In this document: in pieces, positions 13,449-64,000 of the stretch | Layout of the letters: each line of letters starts with the position of its first letter | How positions within the stretch are numbered: position 1 is the stretch's first letter | Assembly (NCBI RefSeq): GCF_963506605.1 | Contig: NC_083277.1 | Location: forward strand, 17,608,001-17,672,000 | Direction: 5' to 3' | DNA: 64,000 nucleotides | Source of the DNA: Zootoca vivipara | Taxonomy: Eukaryota | Notes under the pieces: generated by a model | What the model was told of the DNA's origin: nothing | What the model saw: only the letters and a program-made list of their open reading frames with translations | Databases searched by the model: none | Translations under genes and position numbers: made by a program

Positions 13449-13678
13449 CGGAACTTGCCTACAAGCAAATTATCCTAATTTGCATAGGATTTTTATGTTT
13501 GGAAAATCCACATCACTGAGGGCAAGGAAGGAGGAGGAAAAAGAGATGGAACATGTTGTGGCCTCCCCTAACACCCTTTTATTTCTCCCCACTTGTGCAG
13601 GTCCATGGTGGTATTGTGACGCCCATCAGAGGGGAAAGCGAGCACGAGAAGACAGGGTGGGGCCTGCGCCTGTGAAGG

Positions 13679-33155: not shown

Positions 33156-33281
33156 ATGGTGGTGACTCTTGAGCCCAACGGTGGTGGGACTTCATCAGGG
33201 AGCTGTTTTGGACCAGAACCAAAGAGCCCTGCGCTGGGGGTGTTGTCATGCAGAACAACTTTGCAAGGATGGCCTTGCTGG
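33156..33281 (+). pseudogene. Degenerate (frameshifted) KRAB-A exon whose 3' end can supply the start codon
   Basis: Three frames give VTLE.. / LDQNQRAL / VMQNNFARMALL(G), matching KRAB-A VTFEDV..LDPAQRALY.DVM.ENY..L.SLG. It ends at a phase-1 donor G/gtaaga, 162 nt before a KRAB-B exon. The expected acceptor reads ..ttctgg rather than ..cag. Confidence 0.6.
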
Positions 33282-33613
33282 GTAAGAACCCCAAATCCTG
33301 CCCCCTCCCCACCCCCAACCTTTCCATCCAGTAATGATGGAATTCTTTTTAGCGTGGACTCTGGAGAACGTCTCCCTAGCCAGTGATGGGTAGAATGGCC
33401 AACTCACCTGGGCCTTGCTGCTCTTCTGCTCCTTCCTGCGCAGGGTTGCCTGTTGAAGAGCCGGAGGTGATCTGCAAGATTGAGTCCGAGGAAGAGCCGT
33501 GGATCCCAAGCGAGCAAGCCGCGAGAGGGAGGCGGATCCTGCCTGGAAGCAGGAAGTTAGGTGAGGGGCCAACTCCACCTGGAAGGGCTAGGGCATGCCT
33601 TCTAACCAGGAAT

Positions 33614-33664
<51 letters not shown>

Positions 33665-36600
33665 ATTTTTATTAAACTTTCTGTTTTACAATTTAGAGAA
33701 TACTCATTTAAGCAACCTGAAAATGTCAGTGGTTTCCCTTCTTTTCTTTCCATGGTTCATTTTGCATATCATAAATCCCTGCATATTTTACATAAACTAA
33801 ACCATTCAGTATTCCATTATTACATGCACCAAAACTGGTTTACACTGTTGAATTTATCTTAATGCTGCCAACCTTTTCAACCTTTTCCCCCATACATTCA
33901 ATAAACATTTTCCAATCTTTAAACATATGTTCTTCTTGTTCTCTTATGTTAGGTCCGCAAGCTGCACTTATTCCATCAGTTTAACCTTTTTTGACACCTA
34001 GGAATTTCCGTCTGGATTATCCCCAGCAAAAAGGACTCTGGTTTCTTTTTTTAAAAAAGTACTTTGAAACATTTTTTCCCCCAATTCATTATGAATTATT
34101 TCCCAATGCTCTTTTACCATTTTACAGTTCCACCACATATGAAAGAATGTTCCCTCAACCTCAATGCAGGGAAGTCTATTCTCCCTCTGTCTGCCCAGAG
34201 TTTGAATGAGCAGGTTACGCTCACCCAGCGTTGAGGAAGATGCACCCTCCTTATTCAAAGCATCAAAGAAGAATCAAAGAATCGTAGAGTTTGAAGGAAC
34301 CACGAGGGTCATCTAGTCCAACCCCATGCAATGCATGAATCTCTTGCCCAATGTAGGGCTCGAACCCACGACCCTGAGATTAACAGTCTCATGCTCTCCC
34401 AACTGAGCTATCCCAGGGGATTCGTGCATTGTGTGCCTCAAGCCTGGCTGCACAGCAGAGTCCACTTGAGGAATGCTGAAAACCTTCTAGTTTCTTAGTT
34501 TCAGATCTAGCGCAGTCCTTATTTTTGTTGAAACAAAATAAAAAAAATCCTTCCAGTAGCACCTTAGAGACCAACTAAGTTTGTCATTGGTATGAGCTTT
34601 CGTGTGCATGCACACTCCTTCAGATTTCGTGCATGCACACAAAAGCTCATACCAATGACAAACTTAGTTGGTCTCTAAGGTGCTACTGGAAGGATTTTTT
34701 TTATTTTGTTTTGAGTACGGCAGACCAACATGGCTACCTACCTGTAACTTATTTTTGTTGATACCTCCTTCTGTTTCAAGAGTTTAAAAATTATTGTACT
34801 GTAATTGTGATGCTTCAGGACACACATGCCCAAAAAAAAAGAATTAAATTTTCTCAGCTCTTTTCTCCCCACCCTGTCCTGTCTGAGTTAACCTTTCTCT
34901 CTCTTTCTCTCTTCACCTCCCTCCCACTTGGCTTCACCTCCATCCCACTTGGCTTTCCAGCTGCCGAAACGCCCGAGCCGGCCATTGCCCCCTACAGGCA
35001 GTATCGCGGCACCACGTGGACCTACCCCGAGATCATAGACCTGCTGGTCATTTGGCGCGAGCGGGAGATCCAGCAGGAGCTGCAGCGGAGCCACCGGAAC
35101 ATCGAGACTTTCCAAGTGGTGGCCAGCAAGATGGCGCAGAGAGGCCACAAGCGCTCTGCCCTGGAGTGCCGCTCCAAGATCAAGACTCTGAAGAGGGACT
35201 ACCGGATAGCCAAGGCCAACAACTCCCCGGGGAAAGGACATTTGGCCTGGCTCTTCTACGACCAGCTCGACCACCTGTTGGCCAACGAGGCGGACCTCTC
35301 ACCCCCAGAGGCGCTGCCCGCCTTGAGCCGCCGCGGGGCGTCTGTCGCCGACTCGATGTCTCAGTGCTCCACCGAGGAGGAAGCTGTGGCGGAGGGGGCC
35401 AAAGCGGGCAGCCAGGAAACGCTGCCTCTAAGGACGCGCTCGCCTCCCCAGGTCCCCAGCCTGGGGGGTGGCTTCCCTATACTGTACATAAAGGAGGAAG
35501 CCCCCGACGAAATGCCCGTGACATCTCCCATGGGTCAGTAGCGGCATTTGGTGTCTGAGGAGACCCCTGTGGAATGAGGTTTTCGAAATAGCCTTTTTTT
35601 TTAAAAAAAAAAGGAATCCCTGGGAGACAGTGTCTTTCATTTTATTTTCTTGCATTTAGATTCCGCCTTTTCTTCCAAGAAGGCTGAGGTAGGGTACATG
35701 GTTGTCCTCCTCATTTAATCCCCCACAACAACCCTGCGAAGTGTCTAAAGGTCCTTTACCTTTACCTTTTACCATGAGATGTAGTGACAGCCGGCCAGCT
35801 TAGATGAGTTTACTGGATAAATTCACGGAGGATAAAAAAAAAAACACCAGTGACTACCTGCCACAATGGCTCCGTAATACCTGCAGCGTTACAGACAGTG
35901 AGTCCTATCCAAAGTAGCAATCAAACCTTGCAAGAGCAGAGCTACTTCCGCTTGTACAGTGAGACTTCCCACCCCCACAGTGAGCTCCCTAAATCTGTTC
36001 TGCGGTTGCCTCCGTGCCTCCAGAACAGATTCGGGGAGGGCATGAAGCATGTGCACGTCCTTCCTCTCATGCAGTTGTTTAGTTATGGGATGTTTAGTCA
36101 GAATCTCCTTTCTTGCAACTTGGTTTTGGTCCTACCCTCTAAATTGCGAGGAAAAAAAAGCTTGCTCCATCGTCCATGTGACAGCCCTTGAGATATTTGA
36201 AGATGGATATCCTATCTCTTCTTTTCCAGGGTAAACATACCCATCTCCTTCAACTGGTCCTCATAAGGCTTGGTTGCCTTTGGCTGCCAGGATTAGTGCT
36301 TGAAGACAACAACACTGTTATATGATGTTCTTGAACTCGATAATCAAAATGCAAGGGCTGGGTTAATGCCCAAGGGACTGCGGTGTGTTTTGTATATAAT
36401 GATCATTTCATTCTGATGCTTTCTGCATTCACACATCTGCCCCAAGCATTTCCTCAGCCCATTCTGCGCAACAACATTGTGTAGCCTGCAAGTGGTTTGT
36501 GATACAATAGACCAGAAGCTTGGGGGGGGGGGCTAGGATTGTTGCTGTGGACAAAGGCCAGCTATGCTCCTGAAATTAATCAATGTTATGTCTGTCTTCA

Positions 36601-37892
36601 GGAATAGCAGAAGCCAGCAGTCCGGCTCCACCTCTGCTGTCTACTCCCTGCGATAAACCGGGCAGCTCTGCCTCAACAGTAGGTAAGAACAGGACAAAAC
36701 AATTACTGTAGATAAGAACTGCCAGTTCCTGAGGTTAATCGTTTGAATGACTGGATGTAAATTAGATGCTCACCTGGGGCAAGGAAGAATCCTTTCTAAT
36801 AGGTGGAGTTAGGTTAATAGGTAGCCTTACTAATTTATAAATCACTTTTTACATACTGTCTCAAGGCAATTTGCAGGCAGGCCACAGAAGGAGCGGAACA
36901 CACAGACACACACGCAAAAGCTATTAAAAGCAGCACCAAAAGCCAACGTTTGAAAAAGTTGACGTTTTCATTTTGTATTGTTAAACCTAAGGCCGTTTCT
37001 GTGTTGAAACAAATTTGTCTTCAGTGTTTCCAGAAATGTTATTCGTTTCCAGAAAGTACTGGTAGCGAGTGCTTGTCTCATGTCAACAGGGACGCTGTTC
37101 GAGGGAACAGCCTTGCAGGTTGGTCTTGCAGCCCACAATTTGCAGCAAGGGATGGATAGGAGCCAACATGTTTGTCTTTACTTCGCACTGTGGCTCAGTT
37201 GAACCAACCCATAGTAGAGAGAGCTTACAGATCAATTTTTTAAAAAATCAAGCTATACCAAAAAATGACACAACACAAAAGGATAATAGGAGGAGAAAGG
37301 AGGGGGGGGGAGAAGCAAACTCATGCACTGCTTCTTAAAGTTAACACTGAAAATCCGAATCATGTTGACTCAGAAAGTCCCACTTTGTTCAATGGGACTT
37401 GCTGTTGAGGAAGTGAGTTCTAAGCATAGTTTTGTTTCGTGCTTTTCAGACGGGGCCATAACCCCCTCCCCAAGTCCCTTGCCTGACCCCGCCAGGTCGT
37501 ACGCCGCAGAGCGCCTCGCCAACATCCGGAAGCGGAAGAGGAAAAACAGGCAGGATCTGGCGCTGGAAATCACCCACGCGGCTGACAGGAGGGTGCAGAC
37601 GGCCACCGACCGGATCCTGGCGGCCCTGGGCGAGTACGCGAAGGCCGATCTGGAGGAGCGGGAGCGGGACCGCGTAGACACTGAACAGATCATTGCGCTC
37701 ATGAACCGCCAGACGGAACTGCTAGAGTCGCTCGTGCGAAAGCAGGCAGAGGCGCAGGCTCCCCCGGCCCCGGCCTTAACCCGGCAGGCCCGGCTACCCC
37801 GGCTCGGGCAGCCCGGTCACGCGGCAGACGCTTCTCCCTTGCGCTTGGGGTCCGCCAGGCGGCCCATGGCGCGGGCGAGGTACCGGAGGTGA
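33248..37892 (+). CDS. KRAB-B-like + Myb/SANT (trihelix, MSANTD/ZSCAN29-type) protein derived from a Harbinger Myb ORF; ~415 aa; exons 33248-33281, 33444-33560, 34961-35533, 36602-36682, 37450-37892
   Basis: All introns are GT-AG and phase 1, and the frame stays open across them (1248 nt). Exon 2 GLPVEEPEVICKIESEEEPW is KRAB-B-like. Exon 3 WTYPEIIDLLVIW..F..VASKM..RGHKRSALECRSKIKTLKRDY is Myb_DNA-bind_4-like. The last exon has basic NLS-like RKRKRKNR and a coiled-coil-like segment. Start codon uncertain (33248 or 33269). Confidence 0.8.
33665..34185 (-). mobile_element. L1-clade LINE 3' fragment (intronic), next to (TC)n
   Basis: Minus-strand CIEVEGTFFHMWWNCKMVKEHWE resembles the L1 ORF2 C-terminal Cys/His motif. 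Confidence 0.65.
34270..34418 (-). mobile_element. tRNA-Lys-derived SINE head with CR1-like tail
   Basis: Minus strand tagctcagttgggagagcatgagactgttaatctcagggtcgtgggttcgagccctacattgggc resembles tRNA-Lys(CTT) with a broken acceptor stem, fused to ggttggactagatgaccc..ctacgattc. Confidence 0.7.
34531..34747. mobile_element. Penelope-like element remnant, inverted terminal duplication (~85-bp arms)
   Basis: ccttccagtagcaccttagagaccaactaagtttgtcattggtatgagctt is repeated in inverse orientation; flanking direct repeat cttatttttgttga. Confidence 0.65.
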
Positions 37893-38250
37893 CTCCCAAG
37901 ACGGCTGTGGCGGCGATGTGGCTGTGGCGGCACTCTTTGGCTGTAGTTCCATTAGCGTGCGGGGCATCCGGGCTACGTTTGTAACGGGTTGTAGTTTTCT
38001 TTTTCAGGAATTTAAAAAACTTTTTTTGCAGTTAATGATTTTGTAATTAGGAAGGGGGGCGGGATAAAAGTTGGAGGGTGGGGTTCTTTTCCCCCTACTC
38101 TTTTTTCTCCCCACATTACTAGTTCTGGTAAATAAGGGGTGGGAGGAAAATGTTGTAGCACAGAGACTCACGTGCCACTCAACACAAAACCATTTTGTTC
38201 GATCTTCATAGTTCTCTGTATACACACAAACACACACCCATATATATATA

Positions 38251-38608
38251 CAGGTGAAACTCTGAAAAATAAAATATTGTCGAAAAGTGCATTTATTTCA
38301 GTAATGCAACTTTTTATTTTTTTATTTTTCTTTTAATTTTTACAAATGCTTTCTTTTGGAAATTCCACAGTAATAAAACATATAGATACAATAATACAAA
38401 ATAAACATCGCTATAACATTTCATTAATTACATTCCATTTATAATTGACCCTCCTAACGAGAAATAATTACAATTACAACAAATAAAGGCTTGACATATC
38501 TTGCTTTGCATGTTATGCATCTATGCCATATATTGGTTTCACATTTAAGTTGCATTACTGAAATAAATGCACTTTTTTACGATATTCTAATTTTCCAAGC
38601 TTCACCTG
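38251..38608. mobile_element. Tc1/mariner non-autonomous element (same family as 32202)
   Basis: caggtgaaact..agcttcacctg TIRs inside a TA-rich tract; internal sequence is the reverse complement of the 32202 copy. Confidence 0.8.
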
Positions 38609-38659
38609 TGTATGTATATATATGTGTGTGTGTGTGTCACATATATGGGACCTTAGGTT

Positions 38660-38935
38660 GAATGGTTTTTTGTTGGCATCTGTCTGTCTCGGGAGACAAT
38701 GGAGGAGTGCGCTTTTTGGGGTGAAGTCAAACCATTAGAGAATCACAGCACCTGCTGTGGCCGTAGAGGCCGATACAGGAGAGACATGTTTTGTTGCAGC
38801 TGGGGCAGATGAAGGCATCTGGTTGTGTTGCTGCAGATGCACCATGGCATTTCTTCTCTTTGTACTTGCCCCAGTGGTCATCATTCCTCCTCTGGTCACT
38901 GCTACGGATACACAACCTGTCTGTCTCCAGGCACA
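38660..38935 (-). mobile_element. RTE-clade LINE 3' fragment (related copy 41245-41490)
   Basis: FICPSCNKTCLSCIGLYGHSRCC resembles the C-terminal zinc finger of RTE-type ORFs. Confidence 0.55.
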
Positions 38936-40689
38936 TTTTTACAATGATGAATGGCCTGGAGAACGTGGATAGGGAAAAGTTGGTGGCAGCGTCTTCTATG
39001 ATCTCAGATGCACCTCTTGGGGAACACAAAAGACATAATAAAACAGGAGCAAAACAGACCCCTCCCACAATCTATCTGAGTGGGTGGGAGCCAACATACA
39101 TAAACCTACAGGCAATTTCTTCAATGTATGGTTCCTATATGCCGGTTCTACTGTGGGATCCATACGCAGGAAGTTGTAAGCTCCATGCTGGAGAATGACT
39201 TACTAGGATAGGTTAAAAGAATAGGCTGGTGTTTGAAATAACCCCCAGCCATTGGCTAAGCTGCTGCAACATCACGGAATGTTGTCGAGTATTCTTAAGT
39301 GCAGAAGAGGAAGTGATAGTTACATACTGTTGACAAATCACCTGGGAAGGAAATGAAAATAGATTGGGCTGGAAGAAAACTCTCCGCGTATGTGTGTGTT
39401 GAAAAGAGGGTTGGCGGGGTTAGAACTGGGGAGTGGAAGGGAGCCCAGAGGACGGGAGGATAAAGGGCAGGGTGGCTGAAAGATGGAGACAAAAGCAAGC
39501 AATAATGAATAAGAGCGCAATGGGTCAGTGCACCTGGGTGTTAACCAGAAGGTCGGTGTTTCGAGCCCACCCAGAGATGGCTGTGGGCTGGATTCCTGCA
39601 TTGCAGGGGGGTGGGCTAGATGACCCATGGGGTACCTTCCAACTCTTATGAGTTTGTGCTGGGGGGGGGGGCAAGAAGAAGACTCTGGGAGGCAGGGTTG
39701 AGTAAATTGCTGTGGATGAGAAGGAGGATGGACAAGGCAGGAAAACGGGTTCTGGGATGGTCTGTCTCAGGAGTTAGCAAACTTTTTCAGCAGGGGGCCG
39801 GTCCACTGTCCCCTCAGACCTTGTGGGGGGGGCAGACTATATTTTGAGGGTGGGAGATTGAATTCCTATGCCCCACAAATAACCCAGAGACGCATTTTAA
39901 ATAAAAGGACACATTTTACTCATGTAAAAACATGCTGATTCCCGAACTGTCCGTGGGCCAGATTTAGCAGGTGATTGGGCCGGATCCGGCCCCCGGACCT
40001 TAGTTTGCCTACCCATGGCCTTTCTGCAAGCTTCTGGTTAGGGGTGGTGCTACGTCAGAGAAGTGGTAGATTTGTCCTTTGCAAAAGGGTTTGGAGGTGG
40101 CAGCGGTGAAGAGACCTTGTCAGACGGGTCTGCCTGGATGGGTCTGTTTGCGTGAAGAGGGCTCTTGTTGACACACCCGCCTCTTCTTTGAGAATGGCCT
40201 GGAGCATCTTTTGTTTTGTGGGATGCAAGAACCAGCTGTTCCTACCTAGACACATTATAACAAACAGCCTCCACACTGGGGGGCGCCTGTGAACCATGCA
40301 GACCCAAACAACCCCACCCTCCTTCCTTGGTATCATTTACTGGTATCTTCTAAGCATTTCTGCGTAAGCATTTCTGTACTGAAAATTCAGACAAAAAGCT
40401 TCACATCCCCCACGGCTGCCAGATGAACATGGCACTACAAGACCCATCATCCCTAAGGTAGGTGGTGTTGAAGTCCAGTAACACCCCGAAGCCTACAGGT
40501 AGGGGAGAATTCCTCTCCCATGAGTGATGGGATGATTGGTGGGAGAATTTGTCTCGGAGCTAAACATTTATCGCCTGCTACTCCTGTCAAAGGCACAGCT
40601 ACTGCAGCCAGTTGAAAGCCACACGGGAGTGTGGTGTGTTGCTTGGCATCTGTGAGCTTTGGGAGACTTGAAAAGAAGAGACTTGAGAA

Positions 40690-40930
40690 GGAGATAGGAT
40701 AGCCCATCTTCCAGTATCACAAGGCCTGTCACATGAAAGATGGAGCAAGCTCGTTCTTTCCTCTCCGGAGGGCAGGATTTGAACCAATGGCTTCAAGTTA
40801 CAAGAAAAAAGATTCCGACTAAACATCAGAATGGTCAGAGCTGTTCAAAAGTGGAATGGACTCTTTTTTCAGGTGGTGGACTTACCTTCCTTGAAGGTTT
40901 TTAAAGCAGAGGTTGGATGGCCATCCATCA
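40690..40930 (+). mobile_element. CR1 LINE 3' fragment (related minus-strand piece ~36075-36270)
   Basis: aatggcttcaagttacaagaaaaaagattccgactaaacatcag and ccttccttgaaggtttttaaagcagaggttggatggcc are typical of CR1 ORF2 3' ends. Confidence 0.7.
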
Positions 40931-40938
40931 TGCATATA

Positions 40939-41188
40939 CAGTTGAACCTTGGATCCCAAATGCCTTGTGAGTTGAACGTTTTGGCTCCTGAACGCCGCAA
41001 ACCTGGAAGTGAGTGTTCTGGTATGTGAACGTTCTTTGGAACCCAAACGCCTGACGCAACTTATGCAACTTCCAGTTGGCTACAGAAACTTCCTGCAGCC
41101 AATCGGAAACCGCACCTTGGTTTTCAAACGTTTTGGAAATCGAATGGACTTCCAGAACGGATTCCTTTCAACTTCCGAGGCACCACTG
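40939..41188. mobile_element. Tigger/pogo-like MITE (related elements 45664-45894 and 49437-50071)
   Basis: TA-flanked CAGT(G/C)GTACCT-type TIRs; right ends ccgaggcaccactg, ccaaggtatgactg and ccaaggtaccactg. Confidence 0.7.
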
Positions 41189-41549
41189 TACTTTAGTTCA
41201 GAATCCAGCATTGGAGAGGGTTGGATATTTAGATTACCTTCCAGTTGTCTTCCATCTCGCCAATTTTATGATTCTATGGAAGAGTGTACCTTGGGGGGTA
41301 AAGTCAAACCGCTGGAGAGTCACAGCGCCTGCTGTGGCTGTAGAGACTGATGTAGGAGAGACATGTTTTGTTGAAGGTGGGGCAGATGAAGGTATCCAGT
41401 TGTGCCGCTGCAGATGCCCCATGGCGTTTCTTCTCTCTGGGCTCCTCCCAGCAGTCATTCCTCCTCTGGTCACTGCTGTGGATGCCTGACCCATGGTGAC
41501 AGGGCACAGTCATGATGCCTAAGTGTAGCAGGAAGAACTGCATCGCAGG

Positions 41550-42290
41550 CAGGGCCGGATTTAGGTCTGATGAGGCCCTAAGCTACTGAAGGCCCTAAGC
41601 TACTTTATATGTCCAGCCGTCCTTTGTCAACAACAAAGGGTCACTGTTTTTGGTGTTGAATATACCGTATGCTATAAGGTAATTTGTGGGACGCGGGTGG
41701 CGCTGTGGGTTAAGCCACAGAGCCTAGGGCTTGCCGCTCAGAAGGTCGGCGGTTCGAATCCCTGTGAGGGGGTTGCTCGGTCCCTGCTCCTGCCAACCTA
41801 GCAGTTCGAAAGCACCTCAAAGTGCAAGTAGATAAAAAGGTACCGCTACAGTGGGAAGGTAGGCATTTCCGTGTGCTGCTCTGGTTCGCCGGAAGCAACT
41901 TTGTCATGCTGGCCACATGACCTGGAAGCTATACGCCGGCTCCCTCGGCCAATAACGCGAGATGAGCGCCGCAACCCCAGAGTCAGTGATGACTGGACCT
42001 AATGGTCAGGGGTCCCTTTACCTTATAAGGTAATTTATGGACCTAACAGGTATCTAAAGCCATTTGCACATGTTGCCATGCAACCAGTCCATGCAGAATG
42101 TAGGCACCCTATATCTAGAAAGAGCAAACCTGTGATATTTTAGGGAGCAGGCTAGCTTACTATATGTAGCTTTTATTTGTTTTTTATCTTATATTTTGGA
42201 AATGTACACCCAGGGTGTTTTTTTTTTTTTGGCCCCCAAGAGAGTGGGGCCCTAAGCTATAGCTTAGATTTATAGGTAAATCCGGCACTG
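41550..42290. mobile_element. hAT non-autonomous element carrying a nested Sauria SINE
   Basis: TIR cagggccggattta / taaatccggcactg; 8-bp TSD atcgcagg. Confidence 0.85.
41688..42023 (+). mobile_element. Sauria SINE, near full length
   Basis: gggacgcgggtggcgctgtgggtt..ggttcgaatccc..ggtccctttacc; TSD tataaggtaattt. Confidence 0.9.
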
Positions 42291-42329
42291 ATCGCAGGCA
42301 CAGTCTTGGTGAAGAAGCCGACCCAGAAT

Positions 42330-43022
42330 AACAACTCCCAGAAGCAGGCGGGCTTTAGGACCCTGAGGGGAGCTGACACGTAAGAGATCTTCGGGCGCAG
42401 CCGCCACAGGAAGAGGATCTCCTCGGCCCCGTGGCTCTCGGAGGAGGGTGTGCTGCCGATCCTGGATTCGTGTCTCTTCTTGCACGCTGCACGCGCGTTT
42501 CCTGCGTGCATTTGCAGAATCCGCGAGACCTCCAGGAAGTGGGGGATCCCAGGAGATCCCAGTCTTCTCTGCTGCTTACAAGGCGGAGGAATCGTGCGGG
42601 GGGTGGGCGGATTTAAGAAACCCAACTTTGCCCGGAGAGCCGAGCCGATCCTGGGGGTGAATCTGAGATCTTTTCATCTCCCAGATGGAGCGACCAGGAT
42701 GATTCCTGTGGTCCGCAGCTTGCGATAAAGGAGCCTGGCGCCTCCCTGAATGCAAACGGGAGGATGGGATAAGGAAGACGCCGACAAGGCTGGATCAAGT
42801 GGGAATCCGTAGGCGGAAGGTGGCTCGAGATCTGGATGGTTTGCAGTAGATCGGCAAGGGCTTCCAGCGCTCGGTCGTCCCATCAGCAGTGAAGAAATGA
42901 TATTCTCCACCTAAACATAAATTCCTGAACTGCGGGGGGGAGGGGGATTCCTGCGTTAAATTCAGCTCCGGCTCAATTCCTTTCTGGCCCTGGAAATAAA
43001 TTATTGCTGCTCAGAACACAAG
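42330..43022 (+). promoter_or_regulatory. CpG-rich candidate promoter/first exon of the Harbinger-transposase gene
   Basis: Local CpG enrichment not explained by a repeat, GC boxes, donor AAG/gtaact after 43022. Confidence 0.45.
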
Positions 43023-43967
43023 GTAACTCCACCGGCGCCCTTAAGCCGCTTTGGATTATAGCTCCCATTGTCCCTGACCTTTGGGAATGCAGGCTGGGTC
43101 GTAGTTTGAAGTATCAGAAGCCCCACACTGGCTGCCCCTGCCCTAGAGCAAGGTTTCCCAAACTTTGGTCTGCAGCTGTTTCTGGACTACAATTCCCATC
43201 ACCCCGACCCCTGGTCCTGCTAGCTAAGGATGATGGGAGTTGTAGTCCCAAAAAAACCAACCACAGTTGGCGACCCACCTTTGGGAAAACCCCGCCCTGG
43301 AGGCATGCCTTTTGCATCTGGCTCTGGTTGGAAGCTCTTGGTCTTCTAGGTAAAAATAAATAGGATATTAGACAAACCGGAAGACTGACTGCCTCTGATT
43401 TAGCTATATATTGTCTGCAGCTGCAGCCAGTGGCAAGTCTCCAAAGTCCTGGCACTGTGGGACTCCAGTTCCCATCAGCCACAGGCAACGTAGCCAGTGA
43501 CCAGGGACGGTGGACGTTGTTGCCCCCAGCTATCCTCCCCCCTCATCCCTGCCATAGCCAGGTCCCAAGCCTTCTCAGGCTAGCGGCCTGAAATCCTGAG
43601 GTCCCTGGGATTAAACCTAAGACCTCCTCCACCGCAGAGGAGTGGCCACCTTCCCCAATCCCAGCCCAATCCTGTGCATGTTTCTTTTGGAGCAAGTGCC
43701 AATGAGTTCAGCGAGACTGACTTCCCAGGAAGCTTGTTTAAGGGTCGCTATTTTAAGTTGGCAGCCGCCTGCACAATTTCCTAGAAATGGGTCCAACACA
43801 GACTTCTTCTGCACTATACCATTACTGTAAACCAGCGTCATGACACTTGAAAGGCTGTGGTTTACCCCCAAGAATGCTGGGAACTGGAAACAGTGTTGTT
43901 TAACCCCAGGGAACTCTGGGAATAATGTCTCTGCAGGTGGAATAGGGGTCTTCTACCTGCCTCACTA

Positions 43968-44307
43968 GGGACGCAGGTGGCGCTATGGTCTAAACCAGAG
44001 CCTAGGGCTTGCCGATCAGAAGGTCGCCGGTTCAAATCCCCATGAGGGGGTGAGCTCCCGTTGCTCGGTCCCTGCTCCTGCCAACCTAGCAGTTCGAAAG
44101 CACGTCAAAGTGCAAGTAGATAAATAGGTACCGCTCCGGTGGGAAGGTAAGTGCCGTTTCTGTGCACTGCTCTGGTTCGCCAGAAGCGTCTGTCATGCTG
44201 GCCACATGACCCGGAAACTGTACGCCGGCTCCCTTGGCCAATAAAGTGAGATGAGCGTCGCAAGCCCAGAGTCGTCCGCGACTGGACTTAACGGTCACGG
44301 GTCCCTT
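43968..44307 (+). mobile_element. Sauria SINE, full length
   Basis: Complete head and tail; TSD tacctgcctcacta. Confidence 0.9.
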
Positions 44308-44983
44308 TACCTGCCTCACTAAGCCAATGGCTCATCCAATGGCCTGTGGGGAGGTTTGCCAGCAGGCTGGAGCACAACAGTTGCCCCGCTGCACTTCCCA
44401 GTGACTGGTAGTCAGAGGCATGCAATGACACTCGGCACCTTTAACAAACTACATTTCCCAGAATTCTTCGGGGGGAAGCCATTAATCTTTTTTTGAACGG
44501 AATGATACTGCTTTAAATGTACAGTACAGATGGGGATGTGGTGTTGCTGTGGGGTCTGGTGGGCATTAAAATAGCGGATAAACCACAATGCCTGGCACTG
44601 TTCAGAGCGCTGGGTAGATCTGCTCTGATGCCCAAGGATGTGAGGCACATTGCCCCTGCTCAGTATGGTCATACAGAGTATGTGAGTGTCTCCAGTCTCT
44701 TGATGATTTTGGTTCCATTTTTCTGGAGCTTTTTCAGCTCTACCAGGAAACCAAGCTGTAATTCCTGCATTCGAATCATAGAGTTGGAAAGGGACCACAC
44801 GGGTCATCTAGTCCAACCCCCTGCAATGCAGGATTCTTTTGCTCGAACCCACGACCCTGAGATTGAGAATCTCATGCTCCACCAACTGGATGACGTTTGA
44901 GGTCCCTTCCAACTCTACAATCCTATGAAAATCTGTTCCAGACCCTACTCTGCTCAGCACATGCTTGGATGATTATCATCTTT

Positions 44984-45035
<52 letters not shown>

Positions 45036-45450
45036 GATACACCAAAAGGGGGGGGGACAAAAATACAAATCTAAACAGTGATAAAGACAGTATGAATTAC
45101 AAATCAATAAAGCAAAAAGTGGTCCTTGAACTATAGACCCGACCTCCCGTCTATTCCTTATTTCAGTTATATATTACAGTATTTGTTGCCAGTACCCACT
45201 TTTATCATAGATTAACTAATTATTGGTTTATCTTAGGTCTCATATCTTTCTTAAAGCTACTACTGAAATTATTCAGATGCTGGGAGGATGATTATAATCT
45301 TTGGAGCTTCTCATCTTGTAAAGGCAGCATCTTGGCGCAGTAGGAGCGGCAGGCCTTGTTGGGATCTGCCAGCCCCTGGCGGTTGCCTTTGTTCTGGCTT
45401 CTCTTTCCTGATTAGGTTCTCCTTTCTTAAAGCCTAAGGTGAGGTTGAGG

Positions 45451-48400
45451 ATGGAGAGAGAAGATGAAACGTGGAACCTCCAGGACCCTGAGAAAGAGGA
45501 GATGCCAAGGAATAGCAGCTCAGGTAAGGACTCGGACAGAAAAACTAAACAGAAGAGTATTTCAATGGCAACCATGTGAGTCATAAGTTTGATTTCATCA
45601 GGTGGGAGGTGGATGTGCTTTGCTGGCTTTTGCATCCCTTCTGTCTGGTGTGCTTTTGAAGTACAGTCGTACCTCGGAAGTCGAACAGAATCCGCTCCAT
45701 AAGTCAGTTCGACTTCCAAAACGTTTGAAAACCAAGGCGTGGCTTCCAGTTGGCTGCAGGAAGCTCCTGCCGCCAATCAGAAGCCGCGTCGGACGTTCGG
45801 GTTCCAAAGAATGTTTGCAATCCGGAACTATCACTTCCGGGTTTGCAGCGTTCGGGAGGCGTTCAGAAGGCGTTCGTCAACCAAGGTATGACTGTATATC
45901 TAAACTAGGTATCCTCTGCCCACAATAAGTTGCTCGTTTCACAAAGCAGGAGAATAAGCTAGCGTTTTTGTTTATATTTGTAACTCTCGCATAGCTATTG
46001 AGAGACTTAAAAGATGCGTGCCTAGGTACATGTTCATAGAATTAAAAGAGGGTAGGGATTTTTTCTTTCTTTTTTTAGTTTATTAGATTTGAGAATGAGG
46101 GTGTGTGACCAAGAAGAGCCTTCAAGGGCTGCTGTGAAGGGTGTGCATGCGAAACTGATAAACAAGGCAGTTTCCACTTCCTTCTCAGGCTTCCAAGAAC
46201 ATACCAGTCCGGCCCTAGCTTGTGCAAACTCTTGTAGTGCAAACTCTGGGATGTTTTCAGCTTTTGAGAGATTAAACCAACATGTCAAGGTCGGTTTTTA
46301 CTCTCAACGGCTGGCAAAACACAAAAGAATTTCAGCATTTCCTGCTACAAGCAGGAAATCTCTCTCTTTTTAATTCTATCCTATTCAATGTAAAACAACA
46401 ACAAAATCCTGGACCTACAGAAGTAGCCTGGCCTTTTCCATGACTGCAAGTTTCAAACGTGGAAATTCTCCTTGTACAGGAGGAAGCATTCAAATATTTG
46501 GGAGGGAGGGCAGGATCCAGGGCCTGAGCTTAACTGGGGGGGAAATTGAGATAGGGCTGAAAAGTAGAAGCATAGCTGGATGGCACTGTGCTACAGTTAG
46601 AAAATTGGGGGGGGGCAGCAGGGGACAAAGAAGGGAGAGTGGTGGATAGGTGGCAAAAGAGTGGGAATAGGGTGAGGAGCAACAATAGGTTATTTTCTGA
46701 TTGATTAAGATCAGGCATCCCCAGACTTCGGCCCTCCAGATGTTTTGGACTAAATAAATTTAAGGAACTGCAGAAAGAGGGAAAAGGAAGTCGAGTTTTG
46801 AAATGTTAGAAGAATTGTAAAATTATTGAAATGTCAAAAACTGAAAATCATTTTTTAAAAACCATGCACTGCGTGAAAAAAACCCTTTCTTTTAGAGGCC
46901 CCACCTAATCAGCAGGATAAGGTCCAGTTGTAGAATGAGGCATAGCTGCCAAGTTTTCCCTTTTCTCGCGAGGAAGCCTATTCAGCATAAGGGAAAATCC
47001 CTTAAAATAAGGGATAACTTGGCAGCTATGGAATGAGGTGACCATTTCTATTGAGTTGCAATATAAATAATAATAATATAAATAAAAATAATAATATAAA
47101 TAAACAAATGCCACTGAACACTGAACCTGGCCTAAAATGCAAGTAAAGTCCATTTCTGGAAATGAGGAGGTCTGTAGCTTAGCCAGAGAGAGGCTACTTG
47201 GCCTGTACCTTCAGCCTCAAGCATCTCCTGCTCAGGCCAAAGCTGGTGTGAGGCTCTTCCCCACTGAGGCTCCTGGGACCCACTGCCTAAAAGACATGGA
47301 GCTCCATCGCCAGAATCTCCCCTAGTACAAAACAGCTAATTCCTGGTGTTCCCAAAACAGTCTCTCTTGTCTTTCCTCTTCTCCAGAAAGCGATCAGATG
47401 GTGTCAGCAGCTCTCGCCGCCGCCACAGCTGCCGTGGCTGCCATCACGACCGTCGTGGGGGTCCAGTCGCGCATCTTTGCACGGCTGGCAACACGCCGGA
47501 AGCTTCTGCCGCGAGGGCGCGACGACCTGGCCGAGCTGGAGGAGATGGTGGAGAACGCTGCATCGGTGCGCCTCCGAGCGGTGGTGGAGTCGAGCATCGA
47601 CTCTCTGAAGGCTATGATGTGCTCGTGCCTCTTCCAGTCGCCGGCTGTCCTGGCTGGCCTGATTGACGAGCTCTACATCATGGAGAGGGCCTTCTGGGTG
47701 CAGCCGGGCCGCTCCGAATGGTGGGAGAAAGTGGTCCTGCCCCACTGGGACGACCATCTCTGGCGAGAGAACTTCCGGATGAGCAGGAGGACCTTCACGG
47801 AGCTGTGCGATCGGCTGAGGCCCGTCCTCGAGCGGCAGACCACCAACATGCGCGCTCCGATCACCGTCGAGAAGCAGCTGGCCATCGCCGTCTGGAAGCT
47901 GGCCACCCCGGATAGCTATCGCTCGGTGGCCGAGTGCTTTGGGGTGGGCCGCTCCACGGTCTCCAGGATCGTCATGGAAGTCTGCCAAGCGCTCTACGAC
48001 GTCTACCACCACGTGGTCCAGCTGGCCGGTGCCCAGGAGGTGATGAAAGGCTTCGCTGCCAAGGGCTTCCCTCACTGCATCGGGGTCCTCGACGCCACCC
48101 ACATCCCCATCATCGCCCCGGCGCACAGAGCCACCGAGTACATCAACAGCAAAGGCTACTACTCCATGGTCCTGCAGGTTCTGGTGGACCACAGAGGCAG
48201 GTTCACGGACGTCTATGCAGGGCGCTCCGGGAAGCTTCCCGGCGCCCGGATTTTCCGTGGGTCGCCCATCTTCCGCGCCATGAACCAAGGCACATTTGGT
48301 CCCAGCGTGACCATGGACATGGGGGGCGAGCAGCTGAAGCCGGTGATCCTCGGAGACCCCGCTTACCCGCTGCTGGCCTGGCTGATGACTCCGTACGGCG

Positions 48401-48753
48401 GGCACTTGGATGCCCGCCAACAGTGGTTCAACAACGCCCTCGCCAGCTGCCACGCGGTGGCAGAGTCCGCCTTCGAGCGCCTTCGGGGCCGCTGGCGCTG
48501 CCTGCTCTCCCGCCTGGACGTGAGGGAGCGCTACGCCCCCCGGGTCATTGTGGCCTGCTGCATCCTGCACAACATTTGCGAGACCAGAGGGGAGCCTCTC
48601 CAGGAAGGCTGGCAGGAAGTGGTCAGATCCGTCTCGCGGTCTTACCAGCAGCCAGAAAGGCAGCCAGTGTACGCAGCCAACCCCCGAGCGCGGGAGATCA
48701 GGGATCTTTTGAGCACGTACATGGAAAGGAAAGAGCAGGGGAAGTCGGACTGA
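45451..48753 (+). CDS. KRAB-B-like + PIF/Harbinger transposase-derived protein (HARBI1/ALP1-like, DDE_Tnp_4); ~479 aa; exon 45416-45523 spliced to 47387-48753
   Basis: Intact 451-codon ORF (47398-48753) with WRENFRMSRRTF, HTH YRSVAECFGVGRSTV, GVLDATHIPI, YINSKGYYS, ILGDPAYPL, ESAFERLRGRWRCL, ACCILHNICE. The upstream 108-nt phase-1 exon (GSPFLKPKVRLRMEREDETWNLQDPEKEEMPRNSSS) joins in frame via the acceptor at 47385-47386 and contains ATG 45451 in strong context (aggATGG). The transposase call is solid; the 5' exon is a model. Confidence 0.85.
46941..47030. mobile_element. 90-bp hAT-type MITE, copy 2
   Basis: Identical to 10479-10568; 8-bp TSD gaatgagg. Confidence 0.9.
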
Positions 48754-49279
48754 ATCTGTTGCTTTCCCCTAAAGGAACCCTCATGGCAGGTCTTGGGAAG
48801 AACGGGCCTTCTCTGCAGTGGCTCCCCGTCTGTGGAATGCTCTCCCCAGGGAAGTTCGCCTGCCGCCTTCATTATACACTTTTAGGCGCCAGCCAAAATT
48901 GTTCCTTTTGTTGACCTGATCAACATACTTATACCCTTTTAAAATGCAACTCTTTTTTGGGCGGGTGTTATTGGGTCATTGTTTTTATTTTGATTTTATA
49001 TATTGTGATCTTTGCTGTGAGACCTCCGGGCATAGGGCGGTATATAAATTCAATAAATAAATAAGAAAGAAAGAAATAAGAAGAGACCCTCTCTTCTGTC
49101 CCCATATGAAATAAAAATAAATAGCCTCTTTTGACGTCAGCTATGAAATATGTGGGTCCCGGCTGGCTCTTATGTAGAGGGAAAGGATGTCATAGCATAA
49201 TGGCTGAACACCTGTGCTACAAATTTGAGAGTTGCCCTCTCCTCTCTTGTAATGAGTCCACTCAGGTAACCTAGACAAG

Positions 49280-49329
<50 letters not shown>

Positions 49330-50504
49330 CCTCCCTCCCTCCCTCCCTCCCTCTCTGTCACCTCTGCTATTTGCAGCCTGCCTTGCAGGCTTGTTGTAAG
49401 AATTGCAAATGTATGTGAAAGGTTTGAATACGAGTACAGTGGCACTTTGGTTCTCAAACTTAATCAATTCTGGAAGTCAGTTCCAAAACCAAAGCGTCCC
49501 AAAACCAAGGTGTGCTTTCCCCTATAAAATAATGCAAAACGGATTAATCTGCTCCAAACAACCCCTAAAACAGCAATTTAACATTAATTTTACTATCTAA
49601 TGAGACCATTGATCCATAAATGAAAGCAAGAACCAATGCAGTGTACTATAAAATAAATAAGACAGTATTGTAGATGATAAAAATTTAAAAATAAAAAATT
49701 ATTACCTGCACTGATGATAGTCATTGTTTGGATGGGTTTGGTTTTTTTAAAAAATCCATTTCCGCAGTCACACAATCAATCAATCAATCAATCAATCAGT
49801 AGCTGAACTGGGTTCCACATAGTCACAAAAACAAATTAACTGAAAATGCCTCAAAAACAAAAATGCAAAATAAATTGCAAAACAAAAGCGCCAAACTTAA
49901 TCTGTTCCGAAAGTCCGTTTGACTTCTGAAATGTTTAAAAACCAAGGTGCAGCTTCTTATTGGTGCCCCGAAACAATAGCCGAGAGCAACATCAGATGTT
50001 CAGCTTCCGAAAAACATTCGAAAACTGGAACACTTCCGGGTTTTCAGCGTTTGGGAACCAAGGTACCACTGTACAGCATGGATATTCCTATAATTATACA
50101 AAGCTGACAAGAGGAAGCAAATTGGGGGGAGGGAGGGGGGAGGGCAAGCAATCTGTGGCAATCGATGCCCCCCTCGATATTCCCAAAGTAACTTCACCTG
50201 CAATTGTCAAAACTTTTTTCCACAGGTAGACACTGTGCCACCAATTGCAGAGGCCCGTGTGGCAGGAACAAGTCTGTTTAATTAGGGGTTGGATGAGATT
50301 AACTTCACATATACCCAATATGTATTACCTCACCATTATCAATTATGTTTAAAGTAAAAATTAAGTTCAATTGACTCATTTTCTCCTCCCTTAGCCCACT
50401 CCCCACCACACATAAAAATTAATGTGGGGACCCTAATATTCCAACCTACCTCGCAGTGTCATTAGAATTTCTAAGAGAACGTATCAGTGTGTTTTCAGCA
50501 ATCT

Positions 50505-54247: not shown

Positions 54248-54724
54248 TTACTGAACTGCAACGGGCGCGGTGCTGGCCTTAAGGGCCACTTTGGTGCCTT
54301 TGGCCGCCTTGGTCAGGGGCTTGGACGCGGCCTTGGCGCTGGCCGCGCTATGCAGAGCTTCGGTCTTCTTGGGCAGCAAGACGGCGTGGATGTTGGGCAA
54401 GACTCCGCCCTGCGCGATGGTCACTCCGCCCAGCAGCTTGTTCAACTCCTCGTCGTTGCGCACCGCCAGCTGCAGGTGCCGAGGGACGATGCGGCTCTTC
54501 TTGTTGTCCCTGGCTGCGTTGCCGGCCAGCTCCAGGATTTCTGCACTGAGGTACTCGAGCACAGCGGCCAAATAAACGGGCGCTCCGCCGCCGATGCGCT
54601 CGGCGTAGTTTCCCTTGCGCAACAGCCGATGGACTCTGCCCACGGGAAACTGCAGGCCGGCCCTGGAAGAGCGGGACTTGGCCTTGGCCCGCGCCTTGCC
54701 GCCTGTCTTGCCGCGACCGGACAT
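54248..54724 (-). CDS. Histone H2A, long-tailed variant, copy 1 (158 aa)
   Basis: [45 protein letters not shown] plus tail [37 protein letters not shown]; TATAAAA and CCAAT boxes upstream; intronless. Confidence 0.96.
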
Positions 54725-57700
54725 CTTCAAAACCTCCTGACTTCTATCTCGACCAAAGAACGAAAGGAATGCAGGTGCTTGGAGTGCTTGGAGCCTTTTA
54801 TACGTTTCTTGACCTAGCTGCGATTGGTCGAAGACGAACAGGCCAATAAAAGAAAGGATTCTATTTCTAAACCAATGGGCGACGAGTGCGCGCGGGTGTG
54901 GTCCTGGGAGAGGGGAACGGTATATATTTATTGTAGAAGAAAAGAACAAATACTGTCTATCTCTGCTTTCTGTTCACCCGACCCTTCCCGTACAGTTTTC
55001 TAATGGAAATATTGATGCTCGTGGGTTGTTGTGTTTTTTGGGGTTTTTTTACCCATACGATGTTTTGTGAGAACGGGATATTTTGCTAGTTTCTCCCGTC
55101 TATACAGTTTCTAGCAGATTCCTTTGCTTCTACATTTCCAGCGCGTGAAAGCTACAACGGTCCGCCAAGAAACCTGTTACGCAGTTTACGTTAGACAATT
55201 CCCTGCGATACTTCGTAAAAGTGCACCTCTAACCTCTAGTCTAGGACTAAACAGGCCCAGGCTGCGGTAGAGAAAGCAGAGGGGGGCGGGGTTTGATGCT
55301 CCTGAGCAGTTGGCGGAAATGGCTGCCAAGCGCTTCAGATTTTCCCGCCTTTTCCCCTCCCCGGCACCTCGCTCGCCTGCCTGAGGGAAATGTTGAGCCG
55401 CTCAAAAAGACACTTATTAGAGACGTTGTAAATGTAATTAGTCTTGACGTTCACATAGACAAAAGAAGGTTACCAATACCAACAAATAACATCTCATTTT
55501 AATCTTTTCGTTTAAAATATAATCCCTGTGCGACATAGTTACCTTTCATGAACTCAAATTATATTTCAAAAACTGTTGGTTTTCCGTAATAATTACCCAT
55601 ATGTATAATCTTATAAGGGGATGAGGAGCCACCTTCTCCTCACAGCAGTCTTCATGGCAACTTTTTTTTATAAAAAAACAACTAAGAAGTATATTCCGGC
55701 AGCAGCTTTTTTTGCACTGTAGTCCCACATTTATCTTACATTTTTTTAATTTACAGATGTTAAGGATTTACAGATTGTGTGTCCTCTTACCTGTGAGTAA
55801 GCCACTGAATATAGTGGGACACACATAGGATATACCACTTCTTCCAGGTATCCGAGGAAATAGGAACATCATACTGAACTGCGTTTGTGTTATATTTTGG
55901 GTGCAGTGCTTCATTTTTAGATTTGATTCTATTTTTAAAAATGTGCACAGAAATATTCTGGGCATTTGTATTAGGTGGCAAATAAATTGAAATAATAATA
56001 ATATTACTCTGTATGTATATAGTGCTTCTGATTTGGTTATCTCACAAGCGCAGCCTTAAATTGTTCCTGGTTAGTTCACTGAGAGTCTGAAACCTGGAAA
56101 AAGACTTCAGATCTATGTCATTTTATTCATTCATTCATTCATTCATTTGATTTATATACTGCCCTTCATCATAAGATCTAAAGGCGGTTCTTGCCAACTA
56201 ATGTCAGAGAGGCAGATTGAGCATGATTTTTGTTAATTTCTGTAGCAGTCAAAGGTTTTACAGTAGCAGCAAAACAATTTTAGGAATTTCTGCATTCACT
56301 TCACATCAGGACCGGACTGAGATGTCATCCACTGTATTTTCCAGACAATTCCAACATTTTTTGTCGTTTAGTCGTGTCCGATTCTTCGTGACCCCATGGA
56401 CCATAGCACGCCAGGCACTCCTGTCTTCCACTGCCTCCCGCAGTTTGGTCAGACTCATGTTCATAGCTTCGAGAACACTGTCCAACCATCTCGTCCTCTG
56501 TCGTCCCCTTCTCCCCAAACCCAACATCTGGGTCTTTATTAGCCATCGCCATAAAGAGTCCCTAGCTATTATTGTATTCATATTACTATCCACTATCAAG
56601 TCTATTTCATGTACCAATTGCCAAATCCGCACAATACCATAGAACCACAGAACATCCTGGCTTCCTTTCACCTTTCAATCATCCCTTTTTTTTTGTAAAC
56701 ATTTTTGACACCACACAAAATCCTTCTTCTGTTCCTGGATGTTCAAATTAACGCCTGAAGTTTTGTTGGCAGATTCCGCCCCGCCCCCCTTTGGTACTTA
56801 TCCCGTCCTTTACTCAGTGGGAACAGTCTGGCTTAAATACATGCATGCATTGACCTTTGTTACTAACTTTTAGACCAATCTGCAGAACCTACTTTTTAAA
56901 AATCCAATGTGTATTAATCATCAGGATGAATAGTAAACAGAAACCGGAGTTTGTGTATGTGCATAAAAAGGCTGACATCAAGGCACCTTTCCCCGCCTCT
57001 CCCTTCGCCTTTGCTGTTGTTACAGAAGAGCTTTGTAAACACAGCTTGTCCCTTCGTTTTGTGACATTTTGGCTTCTCCTAATAAATGCATTGTGGAATC
57101 ATGCACTGAAACGTGCAAAGCTGTGGCAAAACAAAATCAATTTCAAAGAATCCACGATCCCCGCGTCCATACCACACATACCAGATGACGCATCTCAAGT
57201 ATGTTCTCGCTAGGGAAACTTTTTTTTGTTTTGCTCAGACGTCTTTTGCATTGGTAGTCGCAGTTATAAATTGCCTCCAGGTTTTATTTTATCTTTCCTT
57301 TCCTGATTCCACTTTGGTACGCAAATATATTTGCCCTTCAAACAGCGCGGGGAACACAAGATTGATCGGAGTAAAGATAATAATCTCCTATCTGAGATTA
57401 TAAATCACTGCGAACCACCTCCAGTGCGCGGAAGCAAGAAGAAACAGAAAATTAAAAGGATTGGTTTGGGTTGCTGCGTGAAAACAGCCAATGAGGCAGT
57501 CTACATTAAATATATTATAAATTAATATGATATCCAGCTTTCACGCGTTGGAAATGTATAACCAAAGGAATCGGTTAGAACCTCTATACACAGGGGAAAC
57601 TTGCAAAATAGGCCCGTTCTCACAAAACATCGTAGGGGTAAAAACAAAAACAAAAAACAACCCACGAGCATCAATATTTCCATTAGAAACCATTCGGGAA

Positions 57701-57959
57701 GGGTCTAACGAATAGAAAGCAGAGAGAGACAGTATTTGTCCTTTCTTCTACAATAAATATATACCGTTCCCCTCTCCCAGGACCACACCCGCGCGCACTC
57801 GTCTCCCATTGGTTTAGAAATAGAATCCTTTTTTCTATTGGCCTGTATGTCGTCGGCCAATCGCAGCTAGGTCAAGAAACGTATAAAAGGCTCCAAGCAC
57901 TCCAAGCACCTGCATTCCTTTCGTTCTTTGGTCGAGATAGAAGTCAGGAGGTTTTGAAG

Positions 57960-58433
57960 ATGTCTGGTCGCGGCAAGACAGGTGGCAAGGCGCGAGCCAA
58001 GGCAAAGTCCCGCTCTTCCAGAGCCGGCCTGCAGTTTCCCGTGGGCAGAGTCCATCGGCTGCTGCGCAAGGGAAACTACGCCGAGCGCATCGGCGGCGGA
58101 GCGCCCGTTTATTTGGCCGCTGTGCTCGAGTACCTCAGCGCAGAGATCCTAGAGCTGGCCGGCAACGCAGCCAGGGACAACAAGAAGAGCCGCATCATCC
58201 CGCGCCACTTGCAGCTGGCGGTACGCAACGACGAGGAGTTGAACAAACTGCTGGGCGGAGTGACCATAGCGCAGGGCGGAGTCTTGCCCAACATCCACGC
58301 CGTCTTGCTGCCCAAGAAGACCGAAGCTCTGCATAGCGCGGCCAGCGCCAAGGCTGCGCCCAAGCCCCTGACCAAGACCGCCAAAGGCACCAAAGTGGCC
58401 CCCAAGCCCAGCACCGCGCCCGTTGCGGTGTAG
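57960..58433 (+). CDS. Histone H2A, long-tailed variant, copy 2 (157 aa)
   Basis: Same fold; tail ..[27 protein letters not shown]; TATAAAA at ~57882 and CCAAT at ~57857. Confidence 0.96.
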
Positions 58434-63101: not shown

Positions 63102-63117
63102 GGCTCTGAAAAGAGCC
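63102..63117 (-). terminator. Histone 3' stem-loop (H2A copy 3)
   Basis: GGCTCTTTTCAGAGCC on the minus strand. Confidence 0.95.
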
Positions 63118-63175
63118 TTTGGGTCTGGGTATTTTGTCAGCGGCCCTGGTCCGGGCTATTGGCCTTTTGGCCTCA

Positions 63176-63649
63176 CTACACTGCAACGGGCGCGGTGCTG
63201 GCCTTGAGGGCCACTTTGGTGCCTTTGGCGGCCTTGGTCAGGGGTTTGGGAGCAGCCTTAGCGCTGGCCGCGCTATGCAGAGCTTCGGTCTTCTTGGGCA
63301 GCAAGACGGCGTGGATGTTGGGCAAGACTCCGCCCTGCGCTATGGTCACTCCGCCCAGCAGTTTGTTCAACTCCTCGTCGTTGCGCACCGCCAGCTGCAA
63401 GTGGCGCGGGATGATGCGGCTCTTCTTGTTGTCCCTGGCTGCGTTGCCGGCCAGCTCTAGGATCTCTGCGCTGAGGTACTCGAGCACAGCGGCCAAATAA
63501 ACGGGAGCTCCGCCGCCGATGCGCTCGGCGTAGTTTCCCTTGCGCAGCAGCCGATGGACTCTGCCCACGGGAAACTGCAGGCCGGCCCTGGAAGAGCGGG
63601 ACTTGGCCTTGGCCCGCGCCTTGCCACCTGTCTTGCCGCGACCAGACAT
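63176..63649 (-). CDS. Histone H2A, long-tailed variant, copy 3 (157 aa)
   Basis: Same as copies 1 and 2; tail ..[27 protein letters not shown]; same promoter layout. Confidence 0.96.
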
Positions 63650-64000
63650 CTTCAAAACCTCCTGACTTCTATCTCGACCAAAGAACGAAAGGAATGCAGG
63701 TGCTTGGAGTGCTTTGAGCCTTTTATACGTTTCTTGAGCTAGCTGCGATTGGTCGAAGACATACAGGCCAATAGAAAAAAGGATTCTATTTCTAAACCAA
63801 TGGGCGACGAGTGCGCGCGGGTGTGGTTCTGGGAGAGGGGAACGGAATATATTAATTGTAGAAGAAAGGACAAATATTGTCTCTCTCTGCTTTCTGTTCA
63901 CCCGACCCTTCCCGTACAGTTTTCTAATGGAAATACTGATGCTCGTGGGTTGTTGTGCCCCCCCCCCCATACGATGTTTTGTGAGAGCTGGGGATATTTT

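Follow-up and report, generated by a model that had tools for sequence, protein, structure and literature searches.

Transposase exons captured by splicing to a KRAB-gene exon are described in the main text of Cosby et al. (bioRxiv 10.1101/2020.05.07.082677), with KRABINER, KMARD1 and KTIGD1/3 as examples; the gene analysed here appears to have arisen in a like manner, and as with the old KRAB-transposase fusions of that study only the fusion transcript was seen. A second class of described systems consists of pairs derived from the two ORFs of Harbinger elements. The insect pairs DPLG7-DPM7, APLG-APM and LPLG2-LPM2 are, according to the sections of PMC9710019 available to us, adjacent conserved transposase- and Myb-derived genes, just as in the squamate pair described below. 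The Arabidopsis pairs ALP1/ALP2 and HDP1/HDP2 are co-domesticated as well, and have a conserved Myb C-terminal region as is found here (PMC7282668, in part). HARBI1/NAIF1 and MSANTD1-4 are vertebrate genes likewise domesticated from Harbinger ORFs; these date to jawed vertebrates or sarcopterygians (PMC9392472, in part), whereas the present pair was found only in squamates. Finally, an intact, transcribed and apparently domesticated Harbinger is reported in the main text of PMC12262214 to anchor the harbiTRIM cluster.

The locus that we studied lies in a window of 64,000 nucleotides of the Zootoca vivipara genome (G000:C2:17608001-17672000; positions below count from its first letter), and differs from each of these systems. 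Unlike the fusions of Cosby et al., its protein has no KRAB-A, translation is initiated within the B exon and its transposase is of the Harbinger type; the terms 'harbinger', 'PIF' and 'Myb' do not occur in the main text of that preprint. Unlike the insect and Arabidopsis pairs, each squamate gene has a KRAB-gene-derived front end and a CpG-rich 5' region of its own. The terms KRAB, lizard and squamate do not occur in the available text of PMC9392472, nor KRAB or Myb in the main text of PMC12262214, whose Fig. S3 may show more. Transposase capture by KRAB genes and Harbinger co-domestication were thus already known, and both proteins are in RefSeq as uncharacterised entries; a description of KRAB-derived exons in this pair was not found in the literature, on which Tables S2/S3 of Cosby et al. 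and the harbiTRIM Fig. S3 may bear.

We favour the view that the internal Met of a remnant KRAB-B exon starts a squamate-wide domesticated Harbinger protein, which is likely a Myb partner and not a repressor. This reading starts from what was observed: how the transcript is spliced, where the coding sequence starts, its homology to KRAB-B and the lack of KRAB-A in the protein (Table 1), and the finding that the two genes are conserved and adjacent across squamates. We hold its anatomical part, a transposase gene with a KRAB-derived start, with high confidence. A complex of the transposase-like protein with the neighbouring Myb protein we favour only slightly.

Table 1. Features of the window, in order of position
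Feature	Position	Strand	Evidence or remark
MGAT1-type glycosyltransferase ORF, single exon	13676-15028		Pfam GNT-I
CpG-rich stretch, likely Myb-gene promoter	28400-29200		GC 0.57, CpG o/e 0.75
Frameshifted KRAB-A relic of Myb gene	33196-33281	+	profile E 1.1e-9; match about 33196-33288
KRAB-B exon of Myb gene	33444-33560	+	DNA profile E 6.5e-5; 0/1932 scored shuffles
Myb/SANT exon of Myb gene	34961-35533	+	Pfam Myb_DNA-bind_4 E 2e-17
Small linker exon of Myb gene	36602-36682	+	
Last Myb-gene exon, basic KRKRK stretch and conserved C-terminal segment	37450-37892	+	
CpG-rich stretch, likely the transposase gene's own promoter	42250-43050		GC 0.56, CpG o/e 0.75
Non-coding first exon of transposase gene	42433-43022	+	spliced contig; GT donor at 43023; 42433 is the contig end, not a mapped transcription start
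Weak second KRAB-B-like relic inside exon 1	42673-42732	+	DNA profile E 0.0055, rank 3 in window
Claimed KRAB-A tail relic	45265-45334	+	no profile match
KRAB-B-derived exon, long form	45416-45523 (108 nt)	+	AG acceptor, CAG/gtaagg donor, phase 1-1
KRAB-B-derived exon, short form	45433-45523 (91 nt)	+	transcript contig; phase 0-1
Coding part of KRAB-B-derived exon, start codon and first 24 residues	45451-45523	+	
Harbinger transposase-derived coding exon	47387-48753	+	Pfam DDE_Tnp_4 E 8e-32
Three near-identical histone H2A-like genes	54248-54973, 57687-58433, ~63054-63668	-	

The contig around the window is dense in KRAB and SCAN genes, and the window itself contains MGAT1, a Myb/SANT gene, the Harbinger transposase-derived gene and genes that we take to be H2A genes. 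Its Myb and transposase-derived proteins are identical to the lacertid RefSeq entries P0163 and P0121, both labelled Zootoca vivipara. The first-pass annotation had described the 108-nt exon with its acceptor, donor, translation and phase-1 join to position 47387, and all of this was reproduced exactly; the exon had not gone unnoticed, however, as RefSeq models already contain it.

The proposed junction between 45523 and 47387 was found in one transcript contig (run X18, record 2; 2123 nt, depth 2.7, 0 mismatches). This contig falls into three pieces with GT-AG introns, namely the non-coding first exon, the short form of the KRAB-B-derived exon and 47387-48828, so that the transcript extends to at least 48828; the exon edges were set by shifting three ambiguous letters. 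The donor at 43022, proposed earlier together with the junction, is indeed used, whereas entry occurs through a second acceptor at 45432, 17 nt inside the 108-nt exon, giving an exon of 91 nt. RNA evidence came from four runs over positions 41500 to 50000, the contig's run being of unrecorded type. In the other three, of which about 6% was read, raw reads gave a depth of 0 to 4.7 over the transposase exon, mostly in the mate orientation expected of plus-strand RNA, and of about 0 over two unique intron bins; the joints listed include no junction from raw reads. As a caveat, the evidence for this junction is one low-depth contig plus RefSeq models. The 108-nt form is present in the Podarcis muralis RefSeq model P0119, and the Paroedura and Crotalus models run through its sequence too.

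None of the six ATGs of exon 1 is open in frame to the coding sequence, and with either acceptor the frame is closed upstream by a stop (42957, 42926) with no in-frame ATG after it. The first in-frame Met is at 45451 under both acceptors and has a strong context (A at -3, G at +4). Because it sits inside the exon, only 24 KRAB-B-derived codons are coding, and the exon's 5' 11 codons are untranslated in the Zootoca genome. Joining 45451..45523 to 47387..48753 gave a translation exactly equal to RefSeq XP_034962893.1 (P0121). The start is followed by an acidic motif (M-E/D..E) in 51 of 58 squamate records, which include isoforms and versions and hence do not stand for 58 species; the other seven, five of them assembly ORFs, begin further downstream or with other sequence. 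Some squamate models carry variable, unalignable extensions upstream of the start Met, and one isoform type (Podarcis, older Zootoca model) begins from sequence near 42750 by a splice that we could not reproduce from the letters of the window. The start Met corresponds to the L of the 'LEqGEepW' motif, and since a Met stands at the homologous position in 3 of 19 ordinary KRAB-B exons, it could pre-exist the capture.

The resemblance of the exon to KRAB-B exons was evaluated with a profile of 19 B exons of the same genome, 10 of which lie behind KRAB-A matches and 9 of which were recognised by similarity to one of those (2 further matches were dropped as non-exons). Positions 1-111 of the DNA profile aligned end to end to 45416-45523 (E 3.8e-4 in 64 kb). 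Among 40 rows for the window this match came second, after the B exon of the Myb gene. The score of the real exon was reached by 0 of 500 codon shuffles and, at the protein level, by 1 of 1950 scored shuffles. The resemblance noticed at first sight was thereby corroborated, and as judged by these comparisons the likeness is more than chance. The weak second KRAB-B-like stretch in exon 1 resembles, by eye, the N-terminal extension of the Paroedura model P0129; with regard to the idea that it is the start of a SCAN gene, the KRAB-B profile barely matched the 20 SCAN-gene starts examined.

The neighbouring Myb gene has the same design. Our five-exon model is identical to RefSeq P0163, and unlike the transposase gene it has a clear frameshifted KRAB-A relic, in which a 4-nt insertion lies directly before the Met at 33248. 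Because this Met opens the Myb protein, the coding sequences of both genes begin with a Met from within a decayed KRAB exon. The B exon of the Myb gene is 77% conserved, its main exon is 72-100% conserved across lizards, and residues 285-368 show 90% identity to 19 non-lacertid rows. Upstream of each gene, the CpG-rich stretches listed in Table 1 are the likely promoters on base composition; the observed/expected CpG ratio of four stretches flanking that of the transposase gene was 0.34-0.42, against 0.75 within it. A KRAB-B exon situated between the Myb and transposase genes requires either two KRAB genes or a duplication, since one insertion cannot produce this arrangement.

A tandem duplication of one promoter-KRAB-A/B-Myb-transposase chimera with reciprocal ORF loss, in place of two KRAB captures, is the origin that we consider possible but rather unlikely, although it would be compatible with the function that we propose. 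It would explain the intervening B exon, and a layout of KRAB-A exon, Myb ORF and transposase ORF in tandem exists at C12:59.50-59.51 Mb. The comparison of the two B exons (45416 and 33444) for paralogy pointed both ways: they ranked 3/20 and 2/20 for each other, but their mutual score of 75 was no higher than the mean of 78 +/- 18 among unrelated B exons. The exons were not sisters in the maximum-likelihood tree, but a single clade was not rejected either (p-AU 0.41, 37 columns), and these results do not show the second exon to be independent, as it had earlier been described. ORF relics were looked for as well: a transposase relic was absent downstream of the Myb gene, as was a Myb relic upstream of the transposase (the best match had 1.6 bits and lay on the wrong strand). 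After so long this is weak evidence, and the blastn matches between the two genes were, by inspection, in repeat-like intronic stretches and off the exons. Captures of this type also appear outside squamates: turtles have an intact KRAB-A/B-Myb protein (24-member cluster), colinear with the first 161 residues of the Myb gene product. Together with the Emydura model discussed below and the C12 tandem, this protein shows that such captures appear to recur.

The transposase gene is old. Orthologues were found in geckos, skinks, cordylids, lacertids, Rhineura, anguimorphs, iguanians and snakes, with 79-85% identity from gecko to snake. All 13 sampled squamate orthologues formed one clade (support 100/99) in a 33-row tree from which HARBI1 was left out, and this clade was separate from turtle elements and own-genome paralogues; the best non-squamate matches, in turtle and alligator, reached at most 54%. 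The nearest other matches in the own genome had at most 55% identity, and one close copy was found. Having a DDE_Tnp_4 domain, a single copy, orthologues and long conservation, the gene is by its sequence a domesticated Harbinger. Adjacency with the Myb gene holds across lizard species as judged from accessions and contigs: the LOC numbers of the two genes directly follow each other in Zootoca, Anolis carolinensis, A. sagrei, Elgaria and Heteronotia, and in Gekko both proteins are assigned to a contig of the same size (338,860 bases). No snake orthologue was named among 24 matches of the Myb gene (length 142-454; 4 of the 24 without a name) or among its 10 clusters, although the transposase gene itself is retained in snakes; this speaks against an obligate pair. 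The C-terminal segment of the Myb protein also occurs in two other paralogues, and no transposase was found in the 40 kb checked around them. They lie at G000:C2:8054001-8061435, with a degenerate KRAB-A-like exon, and at C8:64470262-64473717.

In the mechanism that we propose, Harbinger ORFs lying in a KRAB/SCAN zinc-finger region would have been joined by splicing to KRAB-gene exons with phase-1 donors, before the split of geckos from other squamates. KRAB-A would have decayed after capture, with translation shifting to an internal Met, namely the KRAB-A helix Met in the Myb gene and the 'ME..EE' Met of KRAB-B in the transposase gene. The KRAB gene would have contributed promoter, splice sites and start codon, but not repression. 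For ALP2, HDP2, NAIF1 and Ping, PMC7282668 states, in the part available, that the Myb C-terminal region binds the nuclease partner. By analogy, the Myb protein may bind DNA and, via its C-terminal segment, carry the transposase-like protein into the nucleus, where the pair might act as a chromatin or transcription regulator like HDP1/HDP2, ALP1/ALP2 or HARBI1/NAIF1, without transposing. One point against so limited a part for the KRAB remnants is that the Met with its acidic motif and the Myb gene's B exon are both conserved, so that they could have a function beyond supplying a start.

Alternatively, the protein could have remained an active nuclease under host control and, together with its Myb partner, cut or rearrange DNA, the volatile TRIM/PRY-SPRY cluster nearby being one possible target; we regard this as improbable. 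The window protein keeps D260, D348 and E384 with DD35E spacing, residues that we presume to be the catalytic triad, and with D260 kept in 58 of 58 squamate records and D348 in 57, nuclease activity may remain. However, E384 is altered in 20 of these 58 records, 17 having D and 3 having G against 38 with E, and the HD aspartate is kept in 48 and replaced by G in all 10 lacertid records. The signs of an active transposon, terminal inverted repeats and multiple near-identical copies, were lacking: none of the 25 longest of 144 inverted-repeat pairs flanks both genes, and the genome holds only one close copy. A PDB sequence search with the transposase-like protein found nothing, and Foldseek gave nothing at E 0.001 or better, its top rows being DDE transposases.

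The cluster itself begins about 3 kb beyond the window end. At G000:C2:17675133-17739972 we observed five RING exons (10-57 kb beyond the window end) and several PRY-SPRY exons, which correspond to the published antiviral harbiTRIM locus. The RING exons read, by eye, as three common-lizard harbiTRIM ORFs of the PMC12262214 supplement, and accessions listed in that paper neighbour those of our locus. The transposase gene is thus very likely the domesticated Harbinger of PMC12262214, whose main text treats it as an intact, transcribed element, whereas a KRAB-derived start is described here. Proximity of the RING exons fits a nuclease acting on the cluster, a possibility also raised in the Discussion of PMC12262214, but linkage alone is not function. 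A bolder combination appears more improbable still, in which one chimera duplicated in the squamate ancestor and split into the Myb and transposase genes, both losing KRAB-A, and the complex has kept its DNA-cutting activity in some lineages and controls or rearranges the harbiTRIM cluster; if true, this would be a RAG-like domestication in reptiles.

We strongly doubt that the locus encodes a functional KRABINER-like repressor, whose transcript would include a KRAB-A exon from further upstream, and for Zootoca vivipara this reading is largely refuted. KRAB is the most frequent host domain in transposase fusions according to the main text of bioRxiv 2020.05.07.082677, and the Emydura model P0014 (single-member cluster) does combine KRAB-A with a Harbinger transposase. 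Nonetheless, a profile built from 29 KRAB-A exons (30 loci, 1 skipped) had no match in 43023-45415, nor in 37900-45415; PF01352 was listed for 0 of 12 squamate cluster representatives; and the observed transcript goes from the non-coding exon 1 straight to the KRAB-B-derived exon. A weak KRAB-A tail relic claimed at about 45275-45320 gave no match to this profile, and 7 of 698 background windows, including the one with the Myb gene's true relic, scored at least as high; given its position, the segment is suggestive at most. That both Harbinger ORFs have KRAB-gene front ends, as the first-pass annotation also held, was borne out by the profiles, but to call the result a KRAB fusion was an overstatement. 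The transposase-gene protein contains no KRAB-A box, and translation covers just the last 24 codons of the B exon, which form the protein's least conserved part, with 38.7% identity against 94.9% for residues 86-235 (26 non-lacertid rows). In the structure model, residues 1-27 have pLDDT < 50 and the N-terminal segment is coil at a pLDDT of about 32, and is thus predicted to be disordered. Since KRAB-A alone makes the contacts to KAP1 and KRAB-B is accessory (PMC9753469, in part), neither protein is expected to repress via KAP1, and a non-repressor role of the exon is quite probable.

That an acidic, purine-rich exon merely happens to look like KRAB-B is barely credible and in practice refuted: the bias-corrected protein score is weak (5.5-8 bits overall; for the exon peptide with HMMER bias correction 5.5 bits, E 1.6, rank 6 among 2150 six-frame peptides), Pfam had no match to the exon peptide and an own-genome search with it found only itself, but the DNA alignment ends exactly at the exon boundaries, the phase is 1-1, the length lies in the 90-117 nt range of the 19 B exons, and besides the shuffle results above the Crotalus and Paroedura orthologues reach 18 and 16 bits with no shuffle as high (0/1960 and 0/1944).

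The remnant-exon reading establishes no new mechanism. What it reveals is a way of capturing transposases that would escape screens based on domains: a KRAB gene provides exons and a start codon and afterwards sheds its repressor box, apparently for both ORFs of a Harbinger pair. A start codon from a leftover KRAB exon speaks for a domesticated gene and likely against a repressor fusion. The pair likely represents, in a vertebrate, the linked co-domestication of Myb and transposase genes described in insects (PMC9710019, in part) and plants (PMC7282668, in part), and the domesticated Harbinger anchoring the antiviral harbiTRIM cluster of squamates thereby gains an anatomy that can be tested.

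Several other loci were observed in passing. About 3.7 kb before the window start lies a KRAB-B-like match (G000:C2:17604317-17604375, E 6e-4). At G000:C12:59491424-59512531, two KRAB-A exons, a Myb ORF and an open Harbinger transposase ORF stand in tandem on one strand; the transposase is without several acidic sites, and the locus is possibly a second captured Myb/transposase pair. A split Harbinger transposase at G000:C2:8221433-8231472 has a SCAN exon 6.5 kb upstream on the same strand, a putative SCAN-transposase fusion. More open Harbinger transposase-like ORFs are found at C13:27.02, 38.09, 49.57 and 52.06 Mb and at C2:10.03 Mb, two of them broken into two pieces and most in KRAB/SCAN-rich stretches. 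In snakes, the P0272 cluster (Liasis, Python, Candoia) has a RING domain fused to a Myb_DNA-bind_4 domain, and in Liasis the locus tag of this RING-Myb gene is five numbers away from that of the transposase orthologue.
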